NCBI GenBank assembly: GCA_963814355.1
Contig: CAWFCZ010000006.1
Location: forward strand, 190,746-254,745
Length of the DNA stretch: 64,000 nt
Reading direction: 5' to 3'
Source: an uncultured Actinomycetota bacterium
GTDB taxonomy: Bacteria > Actinomycetota > Actinomycetes > JADGOV01
In this document: piece by piece, positions 3,513 through 56,148 of the stretch
How positions within the stretch are numbered: the stretch's first letter is position 1
How the letters are laid out: each line of letters starts with the position of its first letter
Translations under genes and position numbers: made by a program
Notes under the pieces: model-generated
What the model saw: only the letters and a program-made list of their open reading frames with translations
Databases searched by the model: none
What the model was told of the DNA's origin: nothing

Positions 3513-3817
3513 GGGGATCTTAGGAGTGCGCTCCGCACGACCGGATCGCCCGCCGACAAAGCGGCGGGCGGAAAGTGCCGTCCGCTCTTTGCGTCCCTCC
3601 CGCCGGAAACTTGAGCAAGCATCGCAGAGCGGTGCTGACCAAGCCCACCGTCTCCGACTGAAGTCGGCCAAGCCAACATGCTGCTACCGGCACCAGCAGG
3701 CCGCAACATCCGCCAAAGGTATGATCCGTAATGGATCTCAAAATCCCAGCATATACTGTGATAGACCGTGCAAGTGGCCCCGAAGTCTTCGGTCGGGGAA
3801 GCGAGCGCAGCAAGTGA

Positions 3818-12234: not shown

Positions 12235-12692
12235 TAGCAGAACCCGGCGAGCGTCCAGACGTAGGTGACCTCCGCGACCCACCACTGGTCCGGCCGGGTT
12301 GGGGTGTCCCAGGCCCGGTCGAGAAGGTCCGGGTGCCGCGGCACCCGCTCGTCGCCGCGCCTGGTCGTGGTCGTGGTGTGCTCACCGCGTACGACGCCGG
12401 CGATGCCGGCGATCTTCATCAGCCTGGCGACCTGATCGCGGCCGACGTCATGCCCGGCGCGGCGCATCTCCCGCCACAGCTTGCGCACCCCGTAAACACT
12501 GCGGTTCACCCGGTACAGGTCCACCACAGCGTCGACGAGGTAGGCGGCGGCGAGTTCCGCCGCCGACACCCGGGTCTTCACCGCGGCGTAGTAGGTACTG
12601 GGGGCGATCTGCATGCCGTGCTCGGTCAGCACCCGGCAGATCGGCTCGACCCCGAAGCGGGCCCGGTAACCGTCGATGTAGGCGACGATCAC
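12235..12692 (-). pseudogene. IS3 OrfB, N-terminal part (upstream of the IS630 insertion)
   Basis: IVAYIDGYRARFGVEPICRVL...YGVRKLWREMRRAGHDVGRDQVARLMK...WVAEVTYVWTLAGFCY, then the IS630 end. Confidence 0.8.
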
Positions 12693-13012
12693 TTGAGTCG
12701 GCGGTCGAGCTCCGCCTGAGCGAAAAACGCCGACGCTGTCTTGAGGATCTCATTCGCCCGACGCAACTCCGAGACCTCACGACGCAGCGCTTTCAACTCC
12801 GCTGACTCCTCACTCGTCACCCCCGCACGAGCACCACTGTCGACCTCCTCCCGCTCGATCCAGTTCCGCAGCGTGGCCTGGTTGATGTCCAGTACCGCCC
12901 CGACCTGACGGCGGGCGGCCACCATCGACTCACCACGGTCGCGGAGCCGGTCCTGATACATCCGCACCGCTGGGGCGCGGGTCTCCCCGTCGTACTTCCT
13001 TGATGCAGGCAT
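12689..13012 (-). CDS. IS3 OrfA (HTH/leucine-zipper protein)
   Basis: MPASRKYDGETRAPAVRMY...LKALRREVSELRRANEILKTASAFFAQAELD. Overlaps the orfB start. A near-identical copy lies at 53673-54005. Confidence 0.85.
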   Translation of the reverse strand: MPASRKYDGETRAPAVRMYQDRLRDRGESMVAARRQVGAVLDINQATLRNWIEREEVDSGARAGVTSEESAELKALRREVSELRRANEILKTASAFFAQAELDRRLK

Positions 13013-13072
13013 CCCAGCAGTCTCCTTGCTGAATCAGAGCCTCCACCAGATCCAGGACGGTTCAGTCGTTCA

Positions 13073-13766
13073 GTCGTGGCGGATGCGGGCCCGGCACCGC
13101 CTGCATGAGCCGGAACGTCCGGTCGAGCGGGCCAGTGACATTGACATCGTCGCCGTGCTGCACGCCTGCCGTTCGGCGCGGGACCGGCTGATCGTGTTGC
13201 TGATGGCCCGGGCCGGGTTGCGCCGCGGCGAGGTGTGCGGGCTGCGTCGTAGCGACGTGCACCTGCTCGCCGACTCCGGAGCGTTGGGTTGCGGGGTCGC
13301 TCGGGCGCATCTGCATGTGCTGCGTCGTGAGGGCAATCCGAACGGGGCGTGGGCGAAGTCGCGCCGGCAGCGCAGCGTGCCGTTGGACGTCCTCACCGTG
13401 CAGGCATTCGACACCTACGTGTTCGAGCGGATGAGTGTGCCGCAGGCTGCGGACGGTGATTTCGTGCTGGTGAACCTGTTCCGGGCTCCGCTCGGTGCGC
13501 CGATGCGCCCGGACGCGATCGGTGAGCTGCTCGCCGGTGCCTCGCGACGGGCCGGGCTGGCGCAGGCGTTGCGTCCGCACCAACTGCGGCACGCCTTCGG
13601 TAGCAACGCCGCTGATGCCGGCTGCGGTCTCGACGTGGTCGCCGACCTGCTCGGTCACGCCTCGGTGTCCTCCTCTCAGGTGTATCTGCATCCGGACCCG
13701 GCGCGGCTGCGGGCCGCGGTGGACCTGGTGCCCGGCCCGCGCGAGCAGGCCGGGGTGCCCCGGTGA
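13073..13766 (+). pseudogene. TnpA-like tyrosine recombinase, 5'-truncated
   Basis: Identical to the C-terminal 230 aa of 31430-32602 (ARAGLRRGEVCGL...HQLRHAFGS...LLGHASVSSSQVY). Confidence 0.8.
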
Positions 13767-16215
13767 GCGGCGCCGCGTCGGCCGCGACGACACGATCCGC
13801 GGCCGCGGCCGCGGTTGTCTTCGACCACGTGCTGGCCGGGGTGGGATTGGACGGTCCGGCCGCGCGCCTGGCTGGCCTGCTCGAGTGTGGGTTTCTCATC
13901 GAGGCCGGCTGGGACCCGGTGACGCGGGTGCTGTCGCTGCCGGCCGCGCATCCGTTGCTGGGCCGGCCGCTGTGTCGGGTGGGCGGCTGTTCGACGACCA
14001 TGCATGGCAGGACCGGCGGGCTGTGCTGGCACTGCTTCACCCGGTTGGGTGCGCAGGGTCTGAGCGAGCAGCAGATCGCGGCGTCACCCGAGCTGCCATC
14101 GTTGCCGACGCGTCGACCGGCCGGCTGTGCGGTGCCCGGTTGTGAGCGCATGTCACCGATCCCGCGCTCGACATTGTGCGTGCCGCATCAGCGCCGGCTG
14201 CGTCGCACAGCGGGTGTCTCGCTGGAGCAGTTCCTTACCGACCCGCGGCTGCGTCCGCTGCCCGCGCTGGGACCCTGCCGGGTCGCCGCTTGCAGCCGCC
14301 GCGCCGAATCCGAACATGGCTACTGCGCGACCCATTACGTGCGGTGGCGCACCACGGTCACCACCGATCCCGTTGCCGACCAGCGGCACTGGCAGCTGAC
14401 CCAGCCGGCGGTCTCGCAGGGCGGTGAAGTGAGCCTGCGCGGATTGGCGCCGTTGGTGGTGGTCGAGGTGTTGTTCGGCGTTCAGCAGCGGGTCCGCGGC
14501 GGCGCGCAGATCGTTGAGGTGCCGCTGCGGGCGGTCTGCAACATGCTGCGCCGTGAGCAGGCGACCCAGATCGCGGCGTGCCCGGCCGAGCGCGTGACAG
14601 CGGGCAAGCCGGCCCGGCAGTTGCTGACCGCGTTCGTCTGCGATGTCCGCCGCGCGCTGGCCGATCCCGGTCGTGAGCGGGCCGGCGACAGCTGGGATCT
14701 GGCTCTGTTCGGTCACCGCGGGCGGCTGTCGTTCACCGGTATCAGCCAGCCCTGGCTGGCGTACGCCGCCAAAGCGTGGGCGGGTGAGCAACTGCCACGC
14801 CATCGCGGCGCCGGGGCCAGCAACGTGCGGATCAAGGTCAATGCGGTGGCCCGGTTGTCGGAAAGCCTGCGGGTTCGCGACGACCACGGACTATCACCCG
14901 ACCGGCTGGACCGGCCCCGATATCGAGGCGTTCCTCAACCGGCTGGCCTACCTGGAGTCCACGGGCACGATCAGCCGCTACCACCGCAACGTCATCTGCC
15001 GCGGCGTTCGGGCCGCGCTGTCCGGGATCCGCGCCCTGGGCCTGACCCGGCCCGGTCGGGTCGCCGCCGGGCTGCCCGGCGACTTCGCGATCGGGCGTGA
15101 CGACATCCCCGCCGAAGCGCACCGCGGCGAACCCGGCCGCGACCTCCCGCCGGAGATCATGACGGTGTTGTGCGCGAACCTGGACGGCCTGCGGCCGGCC
15201 GAACTCAAGGCCGCGATCCAGATCGGCATCGACACCGGCCGGCGCCCCGAAGACCTCCTCAACCTGCCGCTGGACTGCCTCCACCGTGACAAAGACGGCG
15301 GGCCCGTGTTGGTCTATGACAACGCCAAAGCCGACCGGCTCGGGCGCCGTCTGCCGATCAACGAGGCGACCGCCGCGGTGATCACCGCCCAGCAGTCGCG
15401 TGTGAAGCAACGCTTCCCCGCCACCCCGGCCGGTGAGCTGAAACTGCTGCCCTCGCCACGGCGAAACCCTGAACGGGAACCGGCGATGGGTCGACACGTT
15501 GGGTCCGCTGCATAGCCGTGACGGCGCCGAGTTCGACAAGTCCAAGATCGTCCCGTACGCCTATCGGCATAGCTACGCCCAGCGCCACGCTGATGCCGGC
15601 GTCGGGATCGACGTACTCGCCGAACTCCTCGATCATCGCAATTTGAACGTCACCCGGGGGTACTACCGGGTCGGGGAAGACCGGCGCCGCGCCGCCGTGG
15701 ACACGGTGACCGCGATGAGTTTCGACCGCCACGGCAACCGGGTCTGGCGCGAGGCCGCCGCCCTGTTGGACTCCGAACACGCCCGCTACGCCGTCGGCGA
15801 AGTCGCCGTCCCCTACGGACGCTGCACCGAGCCGTCCAACGTCGCCGCCGGGGGCGGCGCCTGCCCGGTCCGGTTCCGCTGCGCCGGCTGCGACCACTTC
15901 CGCACCGACGTGTCCTACCTGCCCGACCTCACCCTCTACCTCGACGACCTGCTGCAAACCCGTGAACGTCTGGCCGCCGCCATCGACGGCGTCGACGAGT
16001 GGGCCCGCGCCGACGCCACCCCCAGCCAGCAGGAGATCACCCGGATCCGGCGGCTCATCGGCCGCATCGACGGAGATCTCGGCCACGCCAGTGACACCGA
16101 ACGCGCCGTCATCGACGAGGCAGTCACCGTGATGCGCCGCCACCGCGCCGCATTCCTCGGCATGCCCAGCACCCGGGCGACCGCGCCCGACGCCTGTCCG
16201 GAGGCCACCGCATGA
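13763..16215 (+). pseudogene. TnpB-like large tyrosine recombinase with two frameshifts
   Basis: Three ORF pieces (13763-15100, 14643-15515, 15499-16215) are colinear with the intact 825-aa homologue at 34316-36793. Shared features are the Cys modules, YAYRHSYAQRHADAG and CPVRFRCAGCDHF. Confidence 0.75.
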
Positions 16216-16781
16216 CCAGCAACGCTCCCGCCGCCGAGCACAGCGAGCGCGCCACAGCAATGCGACAAGGCCGGCAAGCCGATTCCACGCGGCGACGCCA
16301 ACGCGTCCTCGCCGCGCTCAACCGCGCCGCCACCGACGGGACCGAGATCAGCGCCGCGAGCATCGCCCGTGCCGCCGGGGTCGATCGCAGTTTCCTCTAC
16401 CGCCACCGCGACCTGCTCGCCCAGATCCACGCCCTGGAGGCAACCCCACCGCCGGCCGGGACCGGCCAGGGGCCCGGCGTCACCCGCGCCTCGCTGCACG
16501 CCGACCTGCTCGCCGCCGGCGAACGAGCCGTCCGGCTGACCAGCCGGATCCGGCAACTGGAAACCCGCCTGTCCGAGACGCTCGGCGAGCAGGCCTGGCG
16601 CGAGTCCGGGCTCGGCGTCCCCGCCGACCTCGACGCCCTCAACCAGAAGATCAACAACCTCGAGCAGCAGAGCATCGACCTGCGCCTGCAACTCGTCGAA
16701 CGCGATCAGGACCTCGCGGCCGCACGCGCCGCCAACCGCGAGCTCATGGCCCAACTCAACACCCCGGCGCGACACCGGTAA
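16212..16781 (+). CDS. TnpC-like coiled-coil protein
   Basis: 189 aa. Start overlaps the tnpB stop. ISAASIARAAGVDRSFLYRHRD followed by a long coiled-coil-like tail. Confidence 0.7.
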   Translation: MTSNAPAAEHSERATAMRQGRQADSTRRRQRVLAALNRAATDGTEISAASIARAAGVDRSFLYRHRDLLAQIHALEATPPPAGTGQGPGVTRASLHADLLAAGERAVRLTSRIRQLETRLSETLGEQAWRESGLGVPADLDALNQKINNLEQQSIDLRLQLVERDQDLAAARAANRELMAQLNTPARHR

Positions 16782-16900
16782 CTCCCGGCGGGTCGTTCTT
16801 GCACCACACCTGTCGCGCACGCTATCGTTCCACGATCAGCTTATGAGCAAAGGGAAAGCTCCCGAGTCGCAGCCCCATACGCAAGCTGACCCCTGGAGAA

Positions 16901-17271
16901 CACGCCCGGCTCGGTCACCCACGGCCGGTGCACCCGCACCCGCCCCGCCCGATACGCCCGCCGCACCTGCAGCACCGCCCGGCGGTCGACCGCTCCGAAC
17001 CGGCATAACCCAACCCCAGCAGCTTCTCGTGCACCACATCAGCGCGGATCCGCCCGTTCGAGCGGTCCATCCACTCCTCCACCTTCGGGAGGAACCCGTC
17101 GACCAACCTCGGCCGGGCAGCCGGACGCGGCGGCGGCCCACCAGCCTCCCGCTCGGCGACATAACGGGCCACGGTGTGATGCGAACAGCCGGCCAGCTCG
17201 GCGGTGGTCCGCAACGACCCGGTCAAATCGAACGCTTCCAATATCTCCATGATCTCCCCTGCAGACTTCAC
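16901..17271 (-). pseudogene. istA: IS21-family IstA, N-terminal HTH fragment cut by element X
   Basis: MEILEAFDLTGSLRTTAELAGCSHHTVARYV...LPKVEEWMDRSNGRIRADVVHEKLLGLGY. In a second frame ...RVRVHRPWVTEPGV abuts the X terminus at 16900. Confidence 0.65.
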
Positions 17272-21214: not shown

Positions 21215-22091
21215 ATGAGCGTGATGACAGGGAATGACGGCTTGCTGCCGGCGGTGGAGCCGGGTGGTGAGCCGGCTGGTCCGCCGCGGGTGTCGGGGCG
21301 GCAGCTGCGGGAGTTGCTGGCTGATGATCTGTGGCTGGATGAGTTGATCGATCGGGCCGGTGAGGGTGGGGTCCGGTTGACCGGGGAGGGCGGGTTCCTC
21401 CCGGAGTTGGTGAAAGCGGTCCTGGAGCGCGGGCTGCAGGCGGAGCTGACCGGCCACCTGGGTATGAGCCTGGTGATCCGGCTGGTCGGGGGTCGGGGAA
21501 CTCGCGGAATGGTGGCACGCCGAAGACGCTGTCGACGGAGGTCGGCCCGGTCGGGATCGACACCCCGCGGGATCGGGTTGGGTCGTTCGAGCCGCGGTTG
21601 GTGCCGAAGGGGCAGCGCCGCTTGGGCGGCCTGGACGAGATCATCATCTCGCTGTATGCGGGTGGGATGACGGTCCGGGACATCGGGCATCATCTGCGGC
21701 GCACGGTGGGCACCGAGTTGTCCCACGACACCATCAGCAAGGTCACTGATGCGGTGGTGGAGGAGGTGAAGGCCTGGCAGACCCGGCCGCTGGATGAGAT
21801 CTACCCGATCGTCTATCTGGATGCGCTGGTGGTGAAGGTCCGGGACGGGCATCAGGTGCGGAACAAGGCGGCGCACCTGGCGGTCGGGGTGGATCTGGAC
21901 GGCGTGAAGCACGTGCTGGGGATCTGGGTGCAGTCCACCGAGGGGGCGACGTTCTGGGCGGGGGTGTGCGCGGAGTTGGCGAACCGCGGGGTGCGGGACA
22001 TTCTGATCGCCTGCTGCGACGGCCTGGAGGGCCTGCCGGCGGCGATCGAGGCGACCTGGTCCAGGGTGACGGTGCAGACCTGTGTGGTGCA
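21215..22091 (+). pseudogene. IS256-family transposase, N-terminal ~290 codons (1-nt frameshift near 21470)
   Basis: ...LQAELTGHLG then, in another frame, YEPGDPAGRGSGNSRNG..PKTL.TEVGPVGIDTPRDR.GSFEPRLVPKGQRRLGGLDEIIISLYAGGMTVRDI...VYLDALVVKVR...VTVQTCVVH. Confidence 0.8.
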
Positions 22092-22175
22092 TTATGCCGA
22101 TCTTCGGATTATGCCGCTGTGGTCGCGGGATCCGTTGCGGGGCAGGGGGTTCGGCTTGGCGAGGTCGGCATAATC
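22092..22175. repeat. RIT-2 terminal inverted repeat (ritA side)
   Basis: The exact reverse complement of 27195-27278, and the same as 56149-56232. TTATGCCG / CGGCATAA submotifs occur three times. Confidence 0.85.
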
Positions 22176-22223
22176 CGGTGAGTTGATCGACGCTTGCCTC
22201 TTCCGTCTGGAGAGGAGAGCGTC

Positions 22224-23207
22224 ATGGTCAAGGTGTTGTCGTCGTTCGTGCGCGGGCCGTTGGAGCGACACGTCACGGGATTGGCCGAGGAACTGCTGCG
22301 GCAGGGCTATTCGGGGACCTCGGCCGCGCAGCATGTGTGTTTCATCGCCCATCTGGATCGCTGGATGAGCGCCGAGGACGTCGAGATCGGCGGCTTGAGC
22401 GGTCCGGTCATCGAGCGCTATCTCGCGCGGCGGCGCTCGGCGGGCTATGTGCAGTACCGGTCGGTGAGAGCGCTCCGGCCGCTGTTGGACTTCCTCGCGC
22501 CGCTTGGCGTATTGCCGGTCGCGTCGCTGGTTCCGCCGGGCCCGGTAGAGGGACTGCTTGTCCGCTACCGCGATTACCTGGTCGGTGAGCGCGGCCTGAC
22601 GCAGGGGACTGCGCGCGGCTACGTGGACTTGGTCCGCCCGTTCGTCGCCACCCGCGCCCACGGCGACGTGCTCGACCTGACCGGGATCACGGCGGCAGAC
22701 GTCAACGGCTTCGTGCTGTCGGCCTGCCCGGGTCGGGCTGTCGGGTCGGCGAAGCTGATCGTCTGCGCGCTGCGGTCGCTGCTGCGCTGGCTGCACTTGA
22801 CCGGGCAGATGTCGGTATCGCTGGCGAGCGCGGTGCCGTCGGTGGCGGGCTGGCGATTGTCGAGCCTGCCGACGGGCTTGGAACGGGGAGAGCTGCGCGG
22901 GCTGCTCGGCTCGTGTGATCGGCGCACCCGCACTGGGCGTCGGGACTACGCGATGATGCTGCTGCTGTCCCGGCTCGGGCTGCGCGCCGGGGAGGTCGCC
23001 CGCCTCGGGCTGGACGACATCGACTGGCGACGCGGCGAGATCGCAATCCGCGGCAAGGGCAACCGCGCCGAACGGCTGCCGCTGCCGGCCGACGTCGGGG
23101 CGGCGATCACGGCCTACCTGCGCGCGGGCCGGCCGACCACCGCCGAGGGCCGCAGCGTGTTCGTGCGGGTGCACGCCCCGCACCGGGCGCTGACCACGGG
23201 CGGGGTC
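22224..23207 (+). pseudogene. ritA: RitA of RIT-2, first ~328 codons, fused to a ritC tail by deletion
   Basis: Identical to 56281-57264 up to ...HRALTTGGVT. The sequence then diverges, lacking the AHRLRHTAATAM box present in copy 2. Confidence 0.75.
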
Positions 23208-23407
23208 ACCGTCGCGGCGCTGCGCCGTTATCAGCGGCTGCGCGACCAATCCGCGTCAGCGACCGGGACCGTGGCGTTCTTCGTCTCCCTGGCCGGAACC
23301 CGGCTGATCTACTGCAACGTCCACAACGCGTTCCACCGGCTCGTGCGCCTGGCCGGGCTCACCGCACGGTCAGCGTCGTGCCGCCCGCGCATCCACGACC
23401 TGCGGCA
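23208..23407 (+). pseudogene. ritC: RitC of RIT-2, internal segment ending at HDLRH where RIT-1 is inserted
   Basis: ...FFVSLAGTRLIYCNVHNAFHRLVRLAGLTARSASCRPRIHDLRH, then the RIT-1 terminus. Confidence 0.6.
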
Positions 23408-23498
23408 TTACGCGGACGGCCGCGTTATGCGCCTTGCTGGCCCGGGCCGCCTTGTGAGGAACGGGTTTGACGTGTCGTTGTCCGCATAATCCCGGGTG
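23408..23498. repeat. RIT-1 terminal inverted repeat (ritC side)
   Basis: Reverse complement of 26863-26953 with a few mismatches. Confidence 0.85.
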
Positions 23499-23504
23499 CC
23501 GGTG

Positions 23505-24548
23505 TCATTTCCCGAGCGTGTCGAGCCAGCTGACCAGAGAGGTGTCGGAGGTCCAGTCGGGCAGGGCGTCCGGGGTGAGCGGCTGGTAGGCGTTCTCGAT
23601 CGCGTTTCGTTTTGTCTCGGCGTCGGCGCGGGCGTAGATCTCGGTGGTGGAGACGTCAGCGTGGCCGAGCAGATCGCGGATGTAGATCAGGTTGACGCCG
23701 GCTTGGATGAGGTGCATCGCCCGGCTCCGCCTGAGGGTATGGGGCGTGACCGGCAGTCCGGGAGCCCAGCCGGGCTCGCGGGCCCGGACGGCTCGCACGT
23801 GGCGGGCGAGGATCTTGGCGACCCCGGAACGGGTCAGCCTCGTGTGGTGCGGTCCGCTGAACAGCGGGTTCGCGTCGGCTCCGATGGCGGGGTGCGGCTT
23901 GAGGTGGTTCAGGTAGTCGGCGAGGAGGCGGGCCGTCGGGTCCATGACGGGGACGTAGCGGATCTTGGAGCCTTTGCCGTGGATGCTCACGGTGATCGGT
24001 GTGGAGCGGCGGACGTCGGCGACGTCGAGGTCGCAGAGCTCTTGGACGCGGGCGCCGGTGTCGTAGGCCAGGGCGAGCAGAACGGTGTCCCTGACCGCGC
24101 GTGTGGTGGCGGTGCCTGGTTCGGCGAGCAGGGCCTTGATCTCCTCGCCGGTCAGGTGCCCGAGGTCCGGGGCCGGGGTGTTCTTCTGCCGGATCGCCAG
24201 TACGTGAGTGATCTGGTCGAGGTGGGCGGGCTGTTCGACGGCGGTGTAGCGGCAGAACGACTTGATCACCGCGAGGCGCTGGTTGCGGGTGGCCGGCGAG
24301 CAGCCGCGCTCGGTCTCCAGCCAGCCGAGGAACCGCAGGACCCGTGAGCGGTCGATGTCGACGAGGCGTAGCTTCTCGGGCGGTATGTGCTCGACGTCTT
24401 TGAACCAGGTGAGCAGCAGCTTCATCGCGTCCCGGTAGGAGGCTATGGTCCGGGCCGACGCGGCGCGTTCCCCGGCCAAGTGGTCGGTGAAGAACTTCGT
24501 CAGCCACCGCCCGGCCGGATCCGCCGGTGGCGCCGGCCGCGGGCTCAC
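23505..24548 (-). CDS. ritC: Tyrosine recombinase RitC
   Basis: GTG 24548 overlaps the ritB stop (GTGA). Box I is DTGARVQELCDL and box II is HTLRRSRAM...LLGHADVSTTEIY. The longer ORF reaching 24731 overlaps ritB and is unlikely. Confidence 0.8.
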   Translation of the reverse strand: MSPRPAPPADPAGRWLTKFFTDHLAGERAASARTIASYRDAMKLLLTWFKDVEHIPPEKLRLVDIDRSRVLRFLGWLETERGCSPATRNQRLAVIKSFCRYTAVEQPAHLDQITHVLAIRQKNTPAPDLGHLTGEEIKALLAEPGTATTRAVRDTVLLALAYDTGARVQELCDLDVADVRRSTPITVSIHGKGSKIRYVPVMDPTARLLADYLNHLKPHPAIGADANPLFSGPHHTRLTRSGVAKILARHVRAVRAREPGWAPGLPVTPHTLRRSRAMHLIQAGVNLIYIRDLLGHADVSTTEIYARADAETKRNAIENAYQPLTPDALPDWTSDTSLVSWLDTLGK

Positions 24549-25510
24549 GACCGGTCTCCGGCCGGTTCGGGGATGACGTAGCCGAAGCGGACCTGGGCCT
24601 TGGCCATCACCTCGGGGTAGGCGTCCGCGGTCAGCCGCAGGTAGTACTGGGTTCCGCGAAGATCGGTGTGGCCCATGTAGCAGGCCAGGTAGGGCAGCAT
24701 CACGGCCAGGTCGGCGTTGTCGGTGGCCCACCGTCGCAGGTTGGCGACGGCGAAGCCGTGGCGCAGCGAGTGCGGATGCGGGCCACCGGTGAAGTGCGGG
24801 ATGTCGGCGTCGGCGAGGTAGCCGCGGAAGCGCAGGTAGACGGTCGACTGGTTGATCGGCCTTCCTCCCGCCCTGCTGTAAAACACGTGGTCGCTGGGTT
24901 CCGGGGCCGGGTGCGCGGCCGCGGTGTAGGCGTGCAGGGTGGCGGCGAGCCGGGCGGTGACCGGGATGGTCCTGCCCTCACCGTTCTTCGAATCGCGGAT
25001 CTGCAGCGTCGCGGCGCTCGTGTCCACGTCCGGCAGGAGCAGGTTCAGCGCCTCGGACACCCGCAGCCCGGCGCCGTAGAGCACCCGGAACAGGACCGGG
25101 TCGACCAGCGCCTTGTTCGAGAAGCTCGACATCGGCTGGGAGTCGATCGCGGTGAACAACCGCCGCGTCTCGGCGTCGGTGAACACATACGGCGGCTGAT
25201 GGGGGACCCGCACCTGGGTGGCCGCGTCCGGGAGATGCGCATCCCAGCCAGCGGCTCGGGCATGCTCGGCCAGTTGCCGCAGCACCAACTCGTTGCGCCG
25301 GACCGTGGAGGCCCGCAGGTGTCGGCCGTAGCGGAACCCGTCGACCGCCTCCTTGGTGATCGAGGCGTCCGGGTAGCCCTGCCGCCGGCAGTGCTCAACG
25401 AACTGGCGCAGCACCCGCTGTGGGACCTTGAACCGGTACCCGCCGGCGTGCCGCAGCGCGGCAAGCTCGGCGACCAGCTCCGGCAGCGTCGGTTCAGGTG
25501 TCGCGCTCAC
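24545..25510 (-). CDS. ritB: Tyrosine recombinase RitB
   Basis: 321 aa. GAGLRVSEALNL, HSLRHGFAV, YMGHTDLRGTQYY. There are 4-bp overlaps with both neighbours. Confidence 0.85.
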   Translation of the reverse strand: MSATPEPTLPELVAELAALRHAGGYRFKVPQRVLRQFVEHCRRQGYPDASITKEAVDGFRYGRHLRASTVRRNELVLRQLAEHARAAGWDAHLPDAATQVRVPHQPPYVFTDAETRRLFTAIDSQPMSSFSNKALVDPVLFRVLYGAGLRVSEALNLLLPDVDTSAATLQIRDSKNGEGRTIPVTARLAATLHAYTAAAHPAPEPSDHVFYSRAGGRPINQSTVYLRFRGYLADADIPHFTGGPHPHSLRHGFAVANLRRWATDNADLAVMLPYLACYMGHTDLRGTQYYLRLTADAYPEVMAKAQVRFGYVIPEPAGDRS

Positions 25511-26772
25511 CGGCGCTCACCGGCCCGGTCGCCTTCGGTGACGTCTTCGACGTCCAACGCGCAACGGCGTAGCCGTTCGACGTCGAAACGCAGGTAGTAG
25601 GCCTGGGTCGTGTCGCTCGAGGCGTGTCCCAGCACGGCCGACACCACCGGGATCGGGGTGCCTCCGCCGATCATCGCGACCGCGAGCGCGCCGCGCAGGG
25701 AATGCATCCCGCAGACCTGGCCCGGCGGGAACACGATCCCGGCCCGGGCGGCGTGCCGCGGCAGCCGGGAGGCGACCGAGGATGAGGACCCGAACACGTC
25801 GAACGGGTGCCGATGCTTGATGAACACCTTCGGGCAGGCCGTCTCGGGCCGGCCGTCGCGGATGTAGTCAATGATCGCCCAGCCGACGTCGTCGAGCAGC
25901 GGCAGCCGCAACGGCCGTCCGGTTTTCTGTTGGACGATCGTGACCTGTTTCGCGCGCCAGTCGAGATCGCCCAGTTCCAGGCCGCGCAGATCCGAGATCC
26001 GCAGCCCCAGCCGGGCGGTCGTCAGGATCATCGCGTAGTCGCGCTTCCCGGTGGCGGACTGGCGGTCGATCCTGGCCAGTAACTGGCGGATCTCCTCCGC
26101 GGTCCACAGGTGCGGGTCGGACTCGTGACGGACGTGGCGGTGCGGCGGCAGACGATCTGCCAGGCCGGCCGGTGCCTGCCCCGCCGCGGCCAAGGCGCCG
26201 AGGAAGTCGGCCAGGCATGACCTCAGGGACGCGATCGTCGTGCGTCGCAGCCCACGTTGACGCAGCAAGAACCCGGACACGTCACGCACGCCGAGCGCCG
26301 CGAGATCGTCGATGCCCATCTCGACCAGGTAGGCCAAGAACCGGCTGGCCGCCCTGTCCTTCGTGACCACGGTCGCCTCGGCGTTGCCGCGACGGCGGCA
26401 CGAGGCGAGGTAGTCGTCCCTGAGCTGACGGAACCTTGCCGGACACCCGTCCTTCGCCGGGATCACTGGGCGGTCGACGTCGACCGCCCGGCCAGCCAGC
26501 ACCTCCGCCATCAACAGCACCGGCCGACGAACGGCCTGGACAGCCCTGTCTTTGACCGGCTCACGCAACGCCGCCAACCGGACGCCGGTCTGGTTCGCGA
26601 TGAAGTCGATGCACACCAACTCGCTTGCGGTGTCCACGCCGCGACCCGTCAAGAAAGCAGCGAACCGTTCCAGCACGACCTGGTACCTGCAGACCGTGTA
26701 CTCATCCCGCCCCGCATCGCGCACCACCGCCACCACGCGGTCCGCGGCGTCCCTGACACCAACATCGCCCAT
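25507..26772 (-). CDS. ritA: Tyrosine recombinase RitA
   Basis: 421 aa. TARLGLRISDLRGL, HSLRGALAV, VLGHASSDTTQAYY. It is the first gene of the trio. Confidence 0.85.
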   Translation of the reverse strand: MGDVGVRDAADRVVAVVRDAGRDEYTVCRYQVVLERFAAFLTGRGVDTASELVCIDFIANQTGVRLAALREPVKDRAVQAVRRPVLLMAEVLAGRAVDVDRPVIPAKDGCPARFRQLRDDYLASCRRRGNAEATVVTKDRAASRFLAYLVEMGIDDLAALGVRDVSGFLLRQRGLRRTTIASLRSCLADFLGALAAAGQAPAGLADRLPPHRHVRHESDPHLWTAEEIRQLLARIDRQSATGKRDYAMILTTARLGLRISDLRGLELGDLDWRAKQVTIVQQKTGRPLRLPLLDDVGWAIIDYIRDGRPETACPKVFIKHRHPFDVFGSSSSVASRLPRHAARAGIVFPPGQVCGMHSLRGALAVAMIGGGTPIPVVSAVLGHASSDTTQAYYLRFDVERLRRCALDVEDVTEGDRAGERR

Positions 26773-26862
26773 CGCGAATCACCCTTCATCCAGAATCGGA
26801 ATGAACAGGCGATTCTTCGCCGAGCAGGCGCAGCGCTCAGCACGCCGGGAAGCTGGCCCCGA

Positions 26863-26953
26863 CACCCGGGATTATGCGGACAACGACACGTCAAACCCGT
26901 TGGTCACAAAGCGGCCCGGGCCAGCAGGGCGCATAACACGGCCGTCCGCGTAA
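26863..26953. repeat. RIT-1 terminal inverted repeat (ritA side)
   Basis: See 23408-23498. Confidence 0.85.
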
Positions 26954-26985
26954 TGCCGGTTATGGGGAATTCCCCATAAGCGGCA
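26954..26985. repeat. 32-bp 13-6-13 palindrome abutting the RIT-1 end (TGCCGGTTATGGG GAATTC CCCATAAGCGGCA)
   Basis: Read directly. There is one arm mismatch. The outer 6 nt of the right arm (GCGGCA) equals the hexamer found at the other junction (23402-23407). Confidence 0.8.
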
Positions 26986-27196
26986 CACCACCGCAATGCG
27001 CCTGCTCCGAGCTGGCGTCGACACCAGCGTGATCGCCCTCTGGCTTGGCCACACCAGCGTCGAAACCACCCAGATCTACCTGCACGCCGACCTCGAACTC
27101 AAGGAGAAAGCACTTGCCAGAACCAAACCACCCACCGCCCGAGCAGGACGCTACAAACCGCCCGACACGCTCATCGCTTGGCTCGAAGCCCTCTGA
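26986..27196 (+). pseudogene. ritC: RitC of RIT-2, C-terminal 69 codons (resumes after the RIT-1 insertion)
   Basis: (H)TTAMRLLRAGVDTSVIALWLGHTSVETTQIYLHADLELKEKAL...IAWLEAL, with the stop inside the RIT-2 inverted repeat. Confidence 0.65.
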
Positions 27197-27278
27197 TTAT
27201 GCCGACCTCGCCAAGCCGAACCCCCTGCCCCGCAACGGATCCCGCGACCACAGCGGCATAATCCGAAGATCGGCATAA
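27195..27278. repeat. RIT-2 terminal inverted repeat (ritC side)
   Basis: Exact reverse complement of 22092-22175. Confidence 0.85.
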
Positions 27279-27310
27279 TGCACCTTATGCCGACGTCGGC
27301 ATAAGGTGCA
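27279..27310. repeat. 32-bp perfect 13-6-13 palindrome abutting the RIT-2 end (TGCACCTTATGCC GACGTC GGCATAAGGTGCA)
   Basis: Read directly. The outer 6 nt (GGTGCA) equals the target hexamer at 22086-22091. A second copy lies at 54981-55012. Confidence 0.85.
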
Positions 27311-27560
27311 CCTGATCCGCGCCTCGATGAGGTTCGTGTCCTACACCGACCGCAAGCGGGTCGCCGCCGCGCTCCGCGCCGTCTACACCGCGCCGACGGT
27401 GGAGGCGGCGGAGACCGCGCTCCTCGCGTTCGGCGAGTCCGAACTCGGCCGGCGCTATCCGGCGACCGTGGCGACCTGGGAGCGGGCGTGGGAGCGGTTC
27501 ATCCCGTTCCTCGCGTTCCCGCCCGCCGTCAGGAAGATCATCTACACCACGAACAGCATC
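27311..27560 (+). pseudogene. IS256-family transposase, middle segment
   Basis: (V)HLIRASMRFVSYTDRKRVAAALRAVYTAP...FPPAVRKIIYTTNSI continues ...QTCVVH from 22091 and is followed by ESLNFQLRK at 38476. Confidence 0.8.
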
Positions 27561-27681
27561 GTTATCTTGAGCCGCCCACCGGGTGTCCGTCATGTCGTTG
27601 ACGGGCGGCTGATGGTGTGCGGGCTGCGTGCTGGACGTGGTTATCTGCGGTCGTCCAGCAGGCGGCTTGCGGGAGGGTTCG

Positions 27682-28295
27682 GTGTTCGTTCAGCGGGTGG
27701 TGCTGCCCGACTCGCGGCGTGAATCGTGGACGGTGGTCGGTGATGATGCGGCGCCGATCGAGCCGGTGGAGCGGTATCTGGCGTTCTTGACCGACGTGGC
27801 CCGGTCACCGACACGGTGAAGGCTTACGCGCATGATTTGAGGGACTGGTTCGGGTTCTTGGCCGGCCGGTCGACGGACTGGCGCCAGGTGCGGCTGGAGG
27901 ACGTCGGCGAGTTCGTCGCCTGGCTGCGGCTGCCGCCGGCGGCCCGGGACGGCCGGGTGGCGGTGCTGCCGTCGGTCGGCGGGCATTGCACCGAGGCGAC
28001 GATCAACCGCAAGTTGTCGGCGGTGTCGGCGTTCTACCAGCACTCGGCGCGCAACGGTGTCGAGCTCGGGGACCTGCTGCGGACCTGGCAGCCGGCCGGT
28101 CGTCGCGGCAGCGGCTGGCGACCGTTCCTGCACCACATCAGCAAGGGTCGACCGGCGGCGCGGCGGGCGATCCGGTTGAACAGTGCGCGCAAGCATCCTC
28201 GGGTCCTCGGCCCGACCGAGGTGCAGGCCGTGTTGGACGCCTGTGATCGGCTACGCGACAGGCTGCTGTTCGCGGTGCTTTATGACACCGGGATG
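27682..28295 (+). pseudogene. W recombinase, part 1 (frameshift near 27812), ends at Box I
   Basis: VFVQRVVLPDS...PVERYLAFLTDVARSPT / VKAYAHDLRDWFGFL...DRLLFAVLYDTGM, then the Y terminus. Confidence 0.65.
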
Positions 28296-28414
28296 TTCTC
28301 CAGGGGTCAGCTTGCGTATGGGGCTGCGACTCGGGAGCTTTCCCTTTGCTCATAAGCTGATCGTGGAACGATAGCGTGCGCGACAGGTGTGGTGCAAGAA
28401 CGACCCGCCGGGAG

Positions 28415-28984
28415 TTACCGGTGTCGCGCCGGGGTGTTGAGTTGGGCCATGAGCTCGCGGTTGGCGGCGCGTGCGGCCGCGAGGTCCTGATCGCGTTCGA
28501 CGAGTTGCAGGCGCAGGTCGATGCTCTGCTGCTCGAGGTTGTTGATCTTCTGGTTGAGGGCGTCGAGGTCGGCGGGGACGCCGAGCCCGGACTCGCGCCA
28601 GGCCTGCTCGCCGAGCGTCTCGGACAGGCGGGTTTCCAGTTGCCGGATCCGGCTGGTCAGCCGGACGGCTCGTTCGCCGGCGGCGAGCAGGTCGGCGTGC
28701 AGCGAGGCGCGGGTGACGCCGGGCCCCTGGCCGGTCCCGGCCGGCGGTGGGGTTGCCTCCAGGGCGTGGATCTGGGCGAGCAGGTCGCGGTGGCGGTAGA
28801 GGAAACTGCGATCGACCCCGGCGGCACGGGCGATGCTCGCGGCGCTGATCTCGGTCCCGTCGGTGGCGGCGCGGTTGAGCGCGGCGAGGACGCGTTGGCG
28901 TCGCCGCGTGGAATCGGCTTGCCGGCCTTGTCGCATTGCTGTGGCGCGCTCGCTGTGCTCGGCGGCGGGAGCGTTGCTGGTCAT
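28415..28984 (-). CDS. TnpC-like coiled-coil protein (identical to 16212-16781)
   Basis: Identical 189-aa translation. Confidence 0.7.
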   Translation of the reverse strand: MTSNAPAAEHSERATAMRQGRQADSTRRRQRVLAALNRAATDGTEISAASIARAAGVDRSFLYRHRDLLAQIHALEATPPPAGTGQGPGVTRASLHADLLAAGERAVRLTSRIRQLETRLSETLGEQAWRESGLGVPADLDALNQKINNLEQQSIDLRLQLVERDQDLAAARAANRELMAQLNTPARHR

Positions 28985-31433
28985 GCGGTGGCCTCCGGAC
29001 AGGCGTCGGGCGCGGTCGCCCGGGTGCTGGGCATGCCGAGGAATGCGGCGCGGTGGCGGCGCATCACGGTGACTGCCTCGTCGATGACGGCGCGTTCGGT
29101 GTCACTGGCGTGGCCGAGATCTCCGTCGATGCGGCCGATGAGCCGCCGGATCCGGGTGATCTCCTGCTGGCTGGGGGTGGCGTCGGCGCGGGCCCACTCG
29201 TCGACGCCGTCGATGGCGGCGGCCAGACGTTCACGGGTTTGCAGCAGGTCGTCGAGGTAGAGGGTGAGGTCGGGCAGGTAGGACACGTCGGTGCGGAAGT
29301 GGTCGCAGCCGGCGCAGCGGAACCGGACCGGGCAGGCGCCGCCCCCGGCGGCGACGTTGGACGGCTCGGTGCAGCGTCCGTAGGGGACGGCGACTTCGCC
29401 GACGGCGTAGCGGGCGTGTTCGGAGTCCAACAGGGCGGCGGCCTCGCGCCAGACCCGGTTGCCGTGGCGGTCGAAACTCATCGCGGTCACCGTGTCCACG
29501 GCGGCGCGGCGCCGGTCTTCCCCGACCCGGTAGTACCCCCGGGTGACGTTCAAATTGCGATGATCGAGGAGTTCGGCGAGTACGTCGATCCCGACGCCGG
29601 CATCAGCGTGGCGCTGGGCGTAGCTATGCCGATAGGCGTACGGGACGATCTTGGACTTGTCGAACTCGGCGCCGTCACGGCTATGCAGCGGACCCAACGT
29701 GTCGACCCATCGCCGGTTCCCGTTCAGGGTTTCGCCGTGGCGAGGGCAGCAGTTTCAGCTCACCGGCCGGGGTGGCGGGGAAGCGTTGCTTCACACGCGA
29801 CTGCTGGGCGGTGATCACCGCGGCGGTCGCCTCGTTGATCGGCAGACGGCGCCCGAGCCGGTCGGCTTTGGCGTTGTCATAGACCAACACGGGCCCGCCG
29901 TCTTTGTCACGGTGGAGGCAGTCCAGCGGCAGGTTGAGGAGGTCTTCGGGGCGCCGGCCGGTGTCGATGCCGATCTGGATCGCGGCCTTGAGTTCGGCCG
30001 GCCGCAGGCCGTCCAGGTTCGCGCACAACACCGTCATGATCTCCGGCGGGAGGTCGCGGCCGGGTTCGCCGCGGTGCGCTTCGGCGGGGATGTCGTCACG
30101 CCCGATCGCGAAGTCGCCGGGCAGCCCGGCGGCGACCCGACCGGGCCGGGTCAGGCCCAGGGCGCGGATCCCGGACAGCGCGGCCCGAACGCCGCGGCAG
30201 ATGACGTTGCGGTGGTAGCGGCTGATCGTGCCCGTGGACTCCAGGTAGGCCAGCCGGTTGAGGAACGCCTCGATATCGGGGCCGGTCCAGCCGGTCGGGT
30301 GATAGTCCGTGGTCGTCGCGAACCCGCAGGCTTTCCGACAACCGGGCCACCGCATTGACCTTGATCCGCACGTTGCTGGCCCCGGCGCCGCGATGGCGTG
30401 GCAGTTGCTCACCCGCCCACGCTTTGGCGGCGTACGCCAGCCAGGGCTGGCTGATACCGGTGAACGACAGCCGCCCGCGGTGACCGAACAGAGCCAGATC
30501 CCAGCTGTCGCCGGCCCGCTCACGACCGGGATCGGCCAGCGCGCGGCGGACATCGCAGACGAACGCGGTCAGCAACTGCCGGGCCGGCTTGCCCGCTGTC
30601 ACGCGCTCGGCCGGGCACGCCGCGATCTGGGTCGCCTGCTCACGGCGCAGCATGTTGCAGACCGCCCGCAGCGGCACCTCAACGATCTGCGCGCCGCCGC
30701 GGACCCGCTGCTGAACGCCGAACAACACCTCGACCACCACCAACGGCGCCAATCCGCGCAGGCTCACTTCACCGCCCTGCGAGACCGCCGGCTGGGTCAG
30801 CTGCCAGTGCCGCTGGTCGGCAACGGGATCGGTGGTGACCGTGGTGCGCCACCGCACGTAATGGGTCGCGCAGTAGCCATGTTCGGATTCGGCGCGGCGG
30901 CTGCAAGCGGCGACCCGGCAGGGTCCCAGCGCGGGCAGCGGACGCAGCCGCGGGTCGGTAAGGAACTGCTCCAGCGAGACACCCGCTGTGCGACGCAGCC
31001 GGCGCTGATGCGGCACGCACAATGTCGAGCGCGGGATCGGTGACATGCGCTCACAACCGGGCACCGCACAGCCGGCCGGTCGACGCGTCGGCAACGATGG
31101 CAGCTCGGGTGACGCCGCGATCTGCTGCTCGCTCAGACCCTGCGCACCCAACCGGGTGAAGCAGTGCCAGCACAGCCCGCCGGTCCTGCCATGCATGGTC
31201 GTCGAACAGCCGCCCACCCGACACAGCGGCCGGCCCAGCAACGGATGCGCGGCCGGCAGCGACAGCACCCGCGTCACCGGGTCCCAGCCGGCCTCGATGA
31301 GAAACCCACACTCGAGCAGGCCAGCCAGGCGCGCGGCCGGACCGTCCAATCCCACCCCGGCCAGCACGTGGTCGAAGACAACCGCGGCCGCGGCCGCGGA
31401 TCGTGTCGTCGCGGCCGACGCGGCGCCGCTCAC
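28981..31433 (-). pseudogene. TnpB-like large tyrosine recombinase, two frameshifts (identical to the copy in X)
   Basis: Same three ORF pieces as 13763-16215. Confidence 0.75.
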
Positions 31434-32602
31434 CGGGGCACCCCGGCCTGCTCGCGCGGGCCGGGCACCAGGTCCACCGCGGCCCGCAGCCGCGCCGGGT
31501 CCGGATGCAGATACACCTGAGAGGAGGACACCGAGGCGTGACCGAGCAGGTCGGCGACCACGTCGAGACCGCAGCCGGCATCAGCGGCGTTGCTACCGAA
31601 GGCGTGCCGCAGTTGGTGCGGACGCAACGCCTGCGCCAGCCCGGCCCGTCGCGAGGCACCGGCGAGCAGCTCACCGATCGCGTCCGGGCGCATCGGCGCA
31701 CCGAGCGGAGCCCGGAACAGGTTCACCAGCACGAAATCACCGTCCGCAGCCTGCGGCACACTCATCCGCTCGAACACGTAGGTGTCGAATGCCTGCACGG
31801 TGAGGACGTCCAACGGCACGCTGCGCTGCCGGCGCGACTTCGCCCACGCCCCGTTCGGATTGCCCTCACGACGCAGCACATGCAGATGCGCCCGAGCGAC
31901 CCCGCAACCCAACGCTCCGGAGTCGGCGAGCAGGTGCACGTCGCTACGACGCAGCCCGCACACCTCGCCGCGGCGCAACCCGGCCCGGGCCATCAGCAAC
32001 ACGATCAGCCGGTCCCGCGCCGAACGGCAGGCGTGCAGCACGGCGACGATGTCAATGTCACTGGCCCGCTCGACCGGACGTTCCGGCTCATGCAGGCGGT
32101 GCCGGGCCCGCATCCGCCACGACATCCGCCCGTCGCCGTCGCGGGCAGCCTCGGGCAGGTCTCGGTCCCCGGCCACCTCATACAACAGCGCGAGCAGATG
32201 CCCGCCCGCCTGCCCGACGACGACCGCATGCACCACCATCTCGCGCACCGCGCTCAGCACGCCGTTGACCCGCCGGGCCCCGCGCACCGGGACGCTGCCC
32301 GGCCCGGCCAGCACCGCCGTGGCAGTCTCCCCGCCCGAGGCGGACAGCCCTGCATAGGTCAACCACGTCATGAACAGCGCCAGCTGTTCGGCCCCGGCCT
32401 GCCAGCTGCGCCCGGTCCGCGCGCACCAGCGCAGGAACAACGCGATCGAGTTCGCGTAACTCTTCGTCGTCGACTCCGCACCATCGCGGCCGAAACGCAC
32501 ATGCCGCAGGAAACCGTCAGCGACCGGCACGACAGCCAGGTCCTCGTCCAGCACAGTCCAGTACCTCGCGCCGGACGGCAACCTCACTGGGAACGCCCGC
32601 AT
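31430..32602 (-). CDS. TnpA-like tyrosine recombinase
   Basis: ATG 32602 follows GGGAGGATCGAAGG. MRAFPVRLPSGARYWTVLDEDL...ARAGLRRGEVCGL...HQLRHAFGS...LLGHASVSSSQVY. Confidence 0.8.
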   Translation of the reverse strand: MRAFPVRLPSGARYWTVLDEDLAVVPVADGFLRHVRFGRDGAESTTKSYANSIALFLRWCARTGRSWQAGAEQLALFMTWLTYAGLSASGGETATAVLAGPGSVPVRGARRVNGVLSAVREMVVHAVVVGQAGGHLLALLYEVAGDRDLPEAARDGDGRMSWRMRARHRLHEPERPVERASDIDIVAVLHACRSARDRLIVLLMARAGLRRGEVCGLRRSDVHLLADSGALGCGVARAHLHVLRREGNPNGAWAKSRRQRSVPLDVLTVQAFDTYVFERMSVPQAADGDFVLVNLFRAPLGAPMRPDAIGELLAGASRRAGLAQALRPHQLRHAFGSNAADAGCGLDVVADLLGHASVSSSQVYLHPDPARLRAAVDLVPGPREQAGVPR

Positions 32603-38394: not shown

Positions 38395-38470
38395 ACAGCC
38401 GTGTCGTGGACACCGTCCACCGCGCAAACCCGCAGTTCAGCGCCACGATCGTCAGGAGACCTCAAGATAA

Positions 38471-38748
38471 GCATCGAGTCGTTGAACTTCCAACTCCGGA
38501 AGATCATCAAGAATCGGGGGCATTTCCCGAACGACGACGCGGTGATCAAGCTGTTGTGGCTGGCGATCCGCGATATCGAGGACAAATGCGCCCGCGCGCG
38601 GGCGGCCGAAGCAGAGAAGGGCGTCCCGAAGGGTCAGCGGGCCGCCCCCGGCCGGCTCGTCGAAGGCGCCGCCACCCAAGGGTGGAAGACCGCCCTCGGC
38701 GCGCTGTCCCTCGCCTACCCCGGACGGCTCCCCGAAGGCGCCCTGTGA
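38471..38748 (+). pseudogene. IS256-family transposase, C-terminal segment
   Basis: (I)[37 protein letters not shown]...[14 protein letters not shown], with a stop at 38746. Confidence 0.8.
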
Positions 38749-38947
38749 TGCCCGGCGCCGTCTACGAATGCGCCGGGTGCGGCGAGCGGATGCTCGAGCG
38801 CCGGTGCGAAGACTGCAACCAGTTCACCCGCAAACTCGGCCCAGGAGGGCCGTGCCCAGCCTGCGACGAGGCGATCCTCGTGGCAGAGCTACTCGACCAG
38901 AACCAAGATCAACCGGTGCCCGCTTACACAGGAAAGTTGACAAGCTC
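38748..38947 (+). CDS. Small zinc-ribbon ORF carried by IS256; it is still open at the IS terminus
   Basis: The ATG overlaps the transposase stop (TGATG). YECAGCG..RCEDCN..GGPCPACDE. There is no stop codon before the IS end at 38947. Confidence 0.5.
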
Positions 38948-53618: not shown

Positions 53619-53672
53619 GATGAACCGTCCTGGATCTGGTGGAGGCTCTGATTCAGCAAGGAAACTGCTGGG

Positions 53673-54005
53673 ATGCCTGCATCAAGGAAGTACGACGGGG
53701 AGACCCGCGCCCGAGCGGTGCGGATGTATCGGGACCGGCTCCGCGACCCTGGTGAGTCGATGGTGGCCGCCCGCCGTCAGGTCGGGGCGGTACTGGACAT
53801 CAACCAGGCCACGCTGCGGAACTGGATCGAGCGGGAGGAGCGGGAGGAGGTCGACAGTGGTGCTCGTGCGGGGGTGACGAGTGAGGAGTCAGCGGAGTTG
53901 AAAGCGCTGCGTCGTGAGGTCTCGGAGTTGCGCCGGGCGAATGAGATCCTCAAGACAGCGTCGGCGTTTTTCGCTCAGGCGGAGCTCGACCGCCGACTCA
54001 AGTGA
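53673..54005 (+). CDS. IS3 OrfA
   Basis: 110 aa. Near-identical to 12689-13012, with a 3-aa EER insertion. Confidence 0.8.
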   Translation: MPASRKYDGETRARAVRMYRDRLRDPGESMVAARRQVGAVLDINQATLRNWIEREEREEVDSGARAGVTSEESAELKALRREVSELRRANEILKTASAFFAQAELDRRLK

Positions 54006-54985: not shown

Positions 54986-55012
54986 CTTATGCCGACGTCG
55001 GCATAAGGTGCA
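54981..55012. repeat. Second copy of the RIT-2 32-bp palindrome
   Basis: TGCACCTTATGCCGACGTCGGCATAAGGTGCA, followed immediately by the IS1595 insertion. Confidence 0.85.
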
Positions 55013-56141: not shown

Positions 56142-56148
56142 AGGTGCA

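Follow-up and report, generated by a model that had tools for sequence, protein, structure and literature searches.

A palindromic module at one end of recombinase-in-trio elements and its possible part in their movement

Several described recombination systems offer points of comparison for the elements considered here. The Xer/dif core has two inverted arms of ~11 bp around a 6-bp centre, and loxP and FRT combine inverted arms with a short spacer (13-8-13) for a tyrosine recombinase. In Tn916, the coupling hexamer from the previous site moves to the new one, and identity between hexamers is not strictly required. For Tn554/SE elements, the literature describes a 6-bp footprint, the hexamer of the previous site travelling on and identity again not being strictly needed. 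The recombinase-in-trio (RIT) mobile elements (Van Houdt 2009/2012; Ricker 2013) encode proteins classed in the literature as "simple", Xer-like tyrosine recombinases; their mechanism has been stated to be unknown and "not tested", no laboratory transposition having been reproduced. An inverted repeat with an "overlapping palindromic sequence" was mentioned for RIT elements and judged not to fit the usual core and arm sites (Van Houdt 2012), and imperfect palindromic repeats of 47-51 bp were described at RIT ends, with hairpins suggested (Nielsen 2017). Here we analyse a 64,000-nt stretch of DNA (the window) from an uncultured Actinomycetota bacterium (GenBank assembly GCA_963814355.1, contig CAWFCZ010000006.1, positions 190,746 to 254,745, forward strand), in which two RIT elements, RIT-1 and RIT-2, are each adjoined at one end by a 20-bp palindrome (P20) lying between two hexamers.

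Judged from sequence comparison, this module appears to be a conserved and barely described component of RIT elements. In the accessible literature, among which Ricker 2013 was not included, we found neither the arm triad nor the spacers, the inheritance of hexamers, the insertion polarity or a P20-bridged circle described. A preliminary description of the window had suggested that the module might be new, which roughly holds for its anatomy and not for the palindromes as such, both Van Houdt 2012 and Nielsen 2017 having mentioned them.

Anatomy of the module in the window

The elements of the window resemble described RIT elements in their gene trio, imperfect inverted repeats and identical copies within one genome. 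RIT-1 (23408-26953) carries adjacent, overlapping tyrosine-recombinase genes in the order ritA-ritB-ritC on the reverse strand (ritC 23505-24731, ritB 24545-25510, ritA 25507-26772), each product of which matches Pfam Phage_integrase (PF00589), RitA having the longer N-terminus. The overlap of ritA and ritB is 4 bp and that of ritB and ritC 187 bp, counted from the first start codon; the true start of ritC may lie further downstream. The imperfect terminal inverted repeats extend over 124 nt at 88% in RIT-1 and 90 nt at 100% in RIT-2, hexamers included, and near-identical second copies are present (1-519 versus 23394-23912, 99.8%; 22083-23211 versus 56140-57268, 99.9%). RIT-1 DNA had no match in the plasmid collection, and an exact-protein look-up found neither its RitB nor its RitA on record.

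We designate the flanking hexamers h1, h2 and h3; the repeats and hexamers of the first copies are given on the forward strand. RIT-2 copy 1 (22092-27278) has a simple junction on its ritA side, where the target hexamer h1 (GGTGCA, 22086-22091), lying in IS256-type Val-His codons, abuts the terminal inverted repeat (22092-22175), which begins with the terminal arm TTATGCCGA and has a second copy of the arm from position 18. The other terminal repeat (27195-27278), ending in ...TCGGCATAA, is followed by the inner spacer h2 (TGCACC, 27279-27284), which is the reverse complement of the target hexamer, by P20 TTATGCCGACGTCGGCATAA (27285-27304), composed of the back-to-back arms TTATGCCGA-CG-TCGGCATAA, and by the outer spacer h3 (GGTGCA, 27305-27310), a direct repeat of h1 that leads into the 3' part of the target gene. 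In RIT-1, h1 (GCGGCA, 23402-23407) comes from the L-R-H codons of the RitB-like gene of RIT-2 and adjoins the ritC-side terminal repeat (23408-23526; terminal arm TTACGCGGA). The ritA-side repeat (26835-26953), which ends in ...TCCGCGTAA, is followed by h2 (TGCCGG, 26954-26959), with one mismatch to the reverse complement of h1, P20 TTATGGGGAATTCCCCATAA (26960-26979), parsed as TTATGGGGA-AT-TCCCCATAA, and h3 (GCGGCA, 26980-26985), which runs on into a RitC-like 3' gene part (HTTAMRLL…). Read outward from P20, this h2 is CCGGCA, which is of the Arg-His type and differs from the present target in one base; the same RIT-1 20-mer stands beside a related RIT in locus L113.

A third 32-mer (54981-55012), identical to that at 27279-27310, belongs to RIT-2 copy 2 and comprises the outer hexamer TGCACC (54981-54986), which adjoins an inverted IS256 3' part, P20 (54987-55006) and the inner hexamer GGTGCA (55007-55012). 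The end of this copy lies at 56143-56232 on the forward strand (duplicated hexamer GGTGCA at 56143-56148, terminal inverted repeat from 56149, ritA side). The end of the second RIT-1 copy, on the reverse strand at 1-511, is a simple junction, the element ending at 505 and being followed by the hexamer TGCCGC (506-511). A degenerate 20-mer pattern covering both palindromes matched three sites in the window, exactly the known ones, and had no match in 100 dinucleotide-preserving shuffles of the window. The sequence thus bears out what had first been noted of these sites: the positions of the 32-mers, including the copy at 54981-55012; the equality of the distal outer hexamer with that of the opposite junction (h3 = h1 in both elements); the inverted hexamer opening the proximal arm, perfect in RIT-2 and with one mismatch in RIT-1; and the following 10 nt, which begin TTAT as the element termini do, the RIT-2 terminus TTATGCCGAT and P20 half TTATGCCGAC differing by a single base.

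Across elements, the module end has the layout terminal arm–6 bp–(arm–2 bp–arm')–6 bp–target, and the opposite end the layout target–h1–terminal repeat arm. The arms follow the consensus T-T-A-T-G-Y-N-G-A. In 49 modules, 32 of the P20 arm pairs match perfectly and the mean mismatch within an element is 0.43 per 9, whereas between elements the arm-to-arm distance is 3.7 per 9; any of the four bases can stand at positions 6-9, yet the two arms of one module match. The P20 arms covary with the termini of their own element, and are often nearer to the consensus or to subterminal repeat copies than to the element's own, slightly degenerate terminal arm. Inverted arms of at least 9 bp therefore face each other at a fixed 6-bp distance in the dif-like arrangement terminal arm–h2–P20 arm. 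P20 would then consist of back-to-back recombinase-binding arms of the same kind as the terminal-repeat arm, and the candidate core-type sites would be terminal arm–6–P20 arm and P20 arm–6–target, that is, one dif-like core site inside the element and an outward half-site that would form the true target junction. The module shares with Xer/dif the arm–6 bp–arm geometry, but differs in having three serial arms with two spacers that share the back-to-back pair, in spacers that change with each insertion, and in a target partner without recognisable arms. We also considered, and rejected, distinct "terminal-type" and "P20-type" arms corresponding to the XerC and XerD arms of dif: the RIT-2 arms are identical over 9 nt, and the other differences are not position-specific.

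The module had at first been parsed as a lox- or FRT-like site of 13-6-13, and the palindrome does resemble loxP/FRT in its inverted arms, short spacer and tyrosine recombinase. It differs from them in that the "13-bp arms" have insertion-specific outer 6 nt, which vary even next to identical P20s and are often non-complementary, while most of the apparent spacer is conserved arm: only the central 1-2 nt of P20 are free, the flanking GA..TC being part of the arms. The conserved unit is therefore 9-2-9, with the hexamers as spacers, and the 13-6-13 parse appears to be a coincidence that arises where two spacers happen to be complementary. That parse also gives way to the position of the junctions with naive targets, which lie at the hexamers.

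A related possibility is that the palindrome is itself the crossover or resolution site, either lox-like (13-6-13 or 7-6-7) or telomere-resolvase-like with hairpin ends. The six central bases are usually palindromic (GACGTC, GAATTC, GAGCTC, AAGCTT, GATATC), and hairpin intermediates have been proposed (Nielsen 2017). We nevertheless regard this as very unlikely: besides the unconserved and often non-complementary outer 6 nt, variation is confined to the central 2 nt, a palindromic spacer gives no directionality, a chromosome cut at a single P20 would break, and naive targets show no P20 half at the other junction, so that exchange with the target would take place at the hexamers.

Recurrence of the module and its relation to target sites

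The degenerate 20-mer was scanned against 185,579 genomes and matched at least 120 stretches. Among the matches listed, 47 were high-GC (including Arthrobacter, Halomonas, Mycobacterium, Actinoplanes and Acidobacteriota), most of them lying at exactly 6 bp from a RIT-type end, and more than 30 further genomes have the identical 20-mer of RIT-2 at a distance of 6 bp from a RIT end. Low-GC matches were rejected as RIT modules, being a coding palindrome inside a conserved open reading frame (ORF). At loci L001, L004, L006 and ~70 more among the matches listed, this is a 32-bp perfect palindrome, TTTTAA-TTATGGCGAATTCGCCATAA-TTAAAA; the ORF (…NPNFNYGEFAIIKSQAGLNSY…), which by eye we take to be KilA-N-like, occurs in bacteria of many phyla and is unrelated to RIT.

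Since a second survey started from RitB, it did not presuppose the 20-mer sequence. Twelve RitB proteins were aligned and 80 diverse RIT loci from many phyla were collected (RitB identity 25-38%). The module, as arm'–6–(arm–1/2 nt–arm')–6, was present in 36 of the 50 loci with both flanks available, on the ritA side only in 17, on the ritC side only in 16 and on both sides in 3; as a control, the coding sequences of the trios, 177 kb in all, gave 5 matches to the same search. Flank palindromes numbered 95, and 38 of them are accompanied by a third arm at an offset of exactly 6 bp, while no other offset from 0 to 15 accounts for more than 3. Four finished plasmids carry the module (Escherichia coli, Paraburkholderia phymatum, Cupriavidus and Mesorhizobium). 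The palindrome is thus general at RIT junctions, as had been proposed for checking, and its confinement to one junction, first seen in the window, extends to 33 of the 36 module-bearing loci. The suggestion that it is a functional recombination site fits this pattern of diverse RITs, matching arms and exact 6-bp distance. The other initial suggestion, a functionless ghost made of the last 10 + 10 bp of a second, nearly fully deleted tandem copy, could appeal to the similarity between P20 halves and element termini (in RIT-2, 9 of 10 positions), but is effectively refuted by the survey, in which the module spans phyla and recurs in 36 of 50 loci with both arms changing in step, exact spacing, fixed polarity to the target and arms that often resemble the consensus or subterminal repeat more closely than they do the terminal arm of their element.

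Comparison of empty and occupied sites indicates how the module arrives. Joining position 22091 to 27311, which removes RIT-2 and 26 bp, restores an uninterrupted IS256-family transposase ORF (…VTVQTCVVHLIRASMRF…) with a single Pfam PF00872 (Transposase_mut) match spanning the junction (E=1.2e-93); the exact empty site of this IS256 copy had no match in the genome contigs searched. A natural pair is provided by an E. coli IncFIA plasmid, in which the RIT (L218) lies in the arrangement …GTGCTG-GACCCG-P20 TTATGTGAAACTCAACATAA-CGGGTC-(RIT)-GACCCG-TTTGCAGG…, and by plasmid pSK1144 (L222), in which the same DNA-methylase gene without RIT reads …GTGCTG-GACCCG-TTTGCAGG…, with one hexamer and no palindrome. 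The empty allele was read in pSK1144, and ~4,200 E. coli plasmids gave flank-only matches to it. Insertion therefore brings P20 and the inverted hexamer and duplicates the 6-bp target hexamer. As neither the reconstructed IS256 gene nor the real plasmid site contains the 32-mer, the module arrives with the element and is not a pre-existing target feature.

P20 was found on the same side of the target motif in all 17 IS256-class and all 11 recombinase-class insertions, whereas the gene next to P20 was ritA in 17 loci and ritC in 16. For example, one site in homologous genes is taken by both L143 and L146, which share P20 and hexamers but have their trios in opposite directions, and the two RIT-2 copies of the window have opposite gene orientations relative to P20. 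Inversion of the trio after insertion could in principle be the sole source of both orientations, but a symmetric circle suffices without it.

The targets themselves are codons of conserved motifs, which the elements enter always with a single polarity. Insertions in the C-x-x-H codons of IS256-family transposases were seen at 17 loci and in RIT-2 of the window, and insertions in the L-R-H codons of tyrosine recombinases at 11 loci and in both RIT-1 copies. Both RIT-1 copies lie in H-D-L-R-H codons, one in the RIT-2 recombinase gene and the other (…SLHDLRH) in another tyrosine-recombinase gene. Further target codons were those of an IstB-like Walker A motif, G-K-T/S (L121-L123), and, on the E. 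coli plasmid, DNA-methylase motif I, D-P-F-x-G-S-G.

Triads of hexamers were compared in ~38 complete elements. All three hexamers are concordant (h1 = h3, h2 the reverse complement) in 16; the odd hexamer is h2 in 6 (including RIT-1 of the window and L168, with 2 differences), h1 in 7 and h3 in 3. Two Kibdelosporangium copies (L168 and L170) have the common h2 GAGGCC, and a new direct repeat, AGCTTC, lies on either side of L168; the element therefore takes h2 and P20 with it and duplicates the target hexamer. Further, h2 of L063 is the reverse complement of h1 of L032; h1 of L023 (CTCCAA) equals the hexamer of the related L160 and L061, while its h3 fits the local codons; and L197 has three different Arg-His hexamers. 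Like coupling sequences, the junction hexamers vary between copies and can stem from a previous site (L168/L170, L023/L160, L063/L032, L197, L120). When h2 is read in the direction away from P20, its last two bases are CA, like those of the targets, in all 28 IS256- and tyrosine-recombinase-class elements, even if h2 and h3 differ; these 28 include 9 of the 16 partial loci in which h2 differs from h3. From these patterns we infer that h2 may be an inverted record of an earlier target.

A proposed symmetric circle and competing explanations

On balance, we lean towards a reading in which the mobile unit comprises the RIT, h2 and P20, and has, in circular form, an attachment site of two-fold symmetry in which either of two hexamers can serve for crossover. 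It is at the hexamers that strand exchange by the tyrosine recombinases would cross over, which would make them its overlap or coupling regions. Excision would proceed by exchange between the h1 and h3 sites, giving a circle in which P20 bridges the repeats (inverted repeat–hexamer–P20–hexamer–inverted repeat). Because this attachment site would be two-fold symmetric, either hexamer could be used for crossover with a specifically recognised, polar target, and the unused hexamer would become h2; strand exchange would tolerate non-identical hexamers, as in Tn916 and Tn554. From such symmetry would follow the fixed side of P20, the random orientation of the trio, an inverted, target-like h2 and all the odd-one-out classes of triads. 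The fuller proposal, that RITs generally move through a circle with P20 as a central pad for a recombinase dimer, two homology-tolerant crossover hexamers and two inverted repeats, we advance more tentatively, as a possibility falling somewhat short of an even chance. Variable flanking hexamers are shared with the coupling sequences of Tn916/CTnDOT and the Tn554/SE footprint, as would be the predicted circular form carrying a hexamer; RIT differs from these systems in its long inverted repeats, the third, internal inverted hexamer and the two putative alternative crossover positions around P20.

Metagenomes were searched for P20 with RIT repeats on both sides. Locus L215 is a 3,527-bp metagenome contig with a 99-bp terminal overlap, equivalent to a 3,428-bp circle, and contains an intact trio together with inverted repeat–TGCCTC–P20–TCGTCA–inverted repeat. 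Both hexamers are Arg-His-like, that is, target-like, when read outward, and the repeats diverge after ~30 bp into the ritA and ritC sides, so that the contig is not a fold-back. RIT ends also flank P20 on both sides in L211 and L214. The contigs L212, L213, L216 and L217 were set aside as circle junctions, being possible assembly fold-backs. In genome contigs, P20 between RIT arms gave 10 matches, mostly with a chance arm-like target, the informative ones being L204 (at a contig end) and L201; viral contigs gave no match for P20 with RIT arms on both sides. In L214, a repeat-bounded mini-RIT of ~0.97 kb (3539-4560) with its own P20 stands in tandem behind a full RIT, and L201 contains a tandem pair of P20s 6 bp apart (732-777).

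Several observations weigh against the circular route. The circular contig is a single case, and assembly of a tandem array would give the same result; L212, L213, L216 and L217 stop 26-39 nt past a perfectly symmetric read-through. Exonuclease-protected RIT DNA has been reported with no circle-junction reads (Nielsen 2017). The triads of L063, L148 and L184 require several successive events. The 2-nt centre of P20 is self-complementary (GC, AT, CG or TA) in 36 of 46 cases, where chance would give 25%, a property that the model of two half-sites does not require; the arms may really be of 10 bp, or the centre may serve a hairpin or cruciform. By the criteria of the survey, 14 of 50 RITs lack the module: L124, L129 and L138 have clean repeats and no module, and that of L128 is, by eye, diverged, so that the module is not indispensable for every RIT. 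Finally, the positions of recombinase binding and cleavage are themselves deduced from sequence.

Some of these points would be accommodated by a folded single-strand substrate, resembling CTX attP(+) or integron attC in having palindromic DNA beside a tyrosine-recombinase crossover, where folding could build a full site. The terminal repeats would pair, extended by pairing of h1 with h2, and the P20 hairpin would stack on the stem, so that a complete arm–6–arm site would be rebuilt, its branch point resembling a nick; the element would then be moved by exchange of one strand and subsequent replication. The repeat often extends through the hexamers, h2 being the reverse complement of h1 in 16 + 3 elements, P20 is usually a perfect palindrome, centre included, and protected RIT DNA lacking circle junctions is on record from mobilome data. 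In L120, L130 and L181 the triad consists of the donor hexamer, the reverse complement of that hexamer and the target hexamer, just as this scheme predicts. In its simplest form, however, the scheme is contradicted by 13 complete elements without the required pairing, 6 with h1 = h3 and h2 unpaired and 7 in which h2 pairs with h3 and not with h1; indeed, it is this inability of many RIT triads to pair, together with the double-stranded circular or tandem form seen in L215, that sets RIT apart from CTX attP(+) and attC. Non-palindromic P20 centres (AG, CT, GT, CC and others) and 1-nt centres also occur among the 49 modules, and we consider a folded substrate unlikely.

Alternatively, two units could be nested, P20 and its hexamers being a stationary landing pad or footprint, perhaps with a regulatory or recombinase-titrating role, and the repeat-bounded trio alone being mobile. 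Among the matches listed, ~10 of the 47 exact-pattern ones are P20s standing alone, without an adjoining RIT end; most of these have hexamers in inverted orientation and are located in genes of the usual target kinds (L036, L052, L056, L111); tandem P20s (L201) and RITs without P20 also exist. Yet naive targets gain P20 along with the element (the E. coli site; L168 versus L170), P20 lies inside the circular contig L215, and solo or double modules are also expected from exchange between copies: L198 and L200 have P20 at both ends and outer flanks that are inverted homologues, as expected from exchange between two copies. A stationary pad is therefore, in our judgement, decidedly unlikely, and the symmetric circle remains the reading that we prefer.

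Surrounding mobile elements and implications

The region of the window that contains the modules is a mosaic of nested mobile elements. RIT-2 copy 1 interrupts an IS256-family (Transposase_mut) gene on the forward strand, the 5' part of which lies at 21484-22091 and the 3' part (…HLIRASMRF…) at 27311-27563. This copy (22194-23407 and 26986-27195) is chimeric: the 5' part of ritA is joined near 23211 to a ritB-like segment, followed by RIT-1 and a ritC-like 3' end, so that the flanks of RIT-1 derive from two different recombinase genes. RIT-2 copy 2 (56251-57501) has kept ritA alone, and its end lies 1.1 kb from P20 because an IS1595-family insertion sequence (55014-56141, forward strand; duplication AGGTGCA), with zinc-ribbon and DDE_Tnp_IS1595 domains and 28-bp perfect inverted repeats, is inserted in the inner hexamer of the second RIT-2 module. 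Elsewhere in the window, a 3.8-kb inverted repeat (13073-16909 versus 28288-32123, 99.9% identical) holds a tyrosine-recombinase-like gene, fragments of insertion sequences are repeated (12437-13064 and 53621-54257; 38470-38947 and 54259-54736), and direct copies of ~1.65 kb (59804-61422 and 61934-63582) have 76% mutual identity.

RIT elements are widespread in bacterial chromosomes and plasmids, and the module makes their transposition mechanism testable by providing a map of sites: three arms, two 6-bp spacers and a predicted circle junction. It also explains the earlier failure to find conventional core and arm sites, and serves as a sequence signature for the exact delimitation of RITs in annotation, whereas the inner hexamer could be used to trace RIT movement between genomes through the earlier target that it appears to record. 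The fixed-polarity insertion into codons of conserved motifs suggests unusually precise targeting by simple Xer-like recombinases. If RITs do move through a symmetric circle, their insertion polarity would be fixed and the orientation of their genes random, each element would hold a readable, two-deep record of its previous targets, and Xer-like recombinases would be able to aim at conserved-motif codons in the genes of other mobile elements and of methylases.

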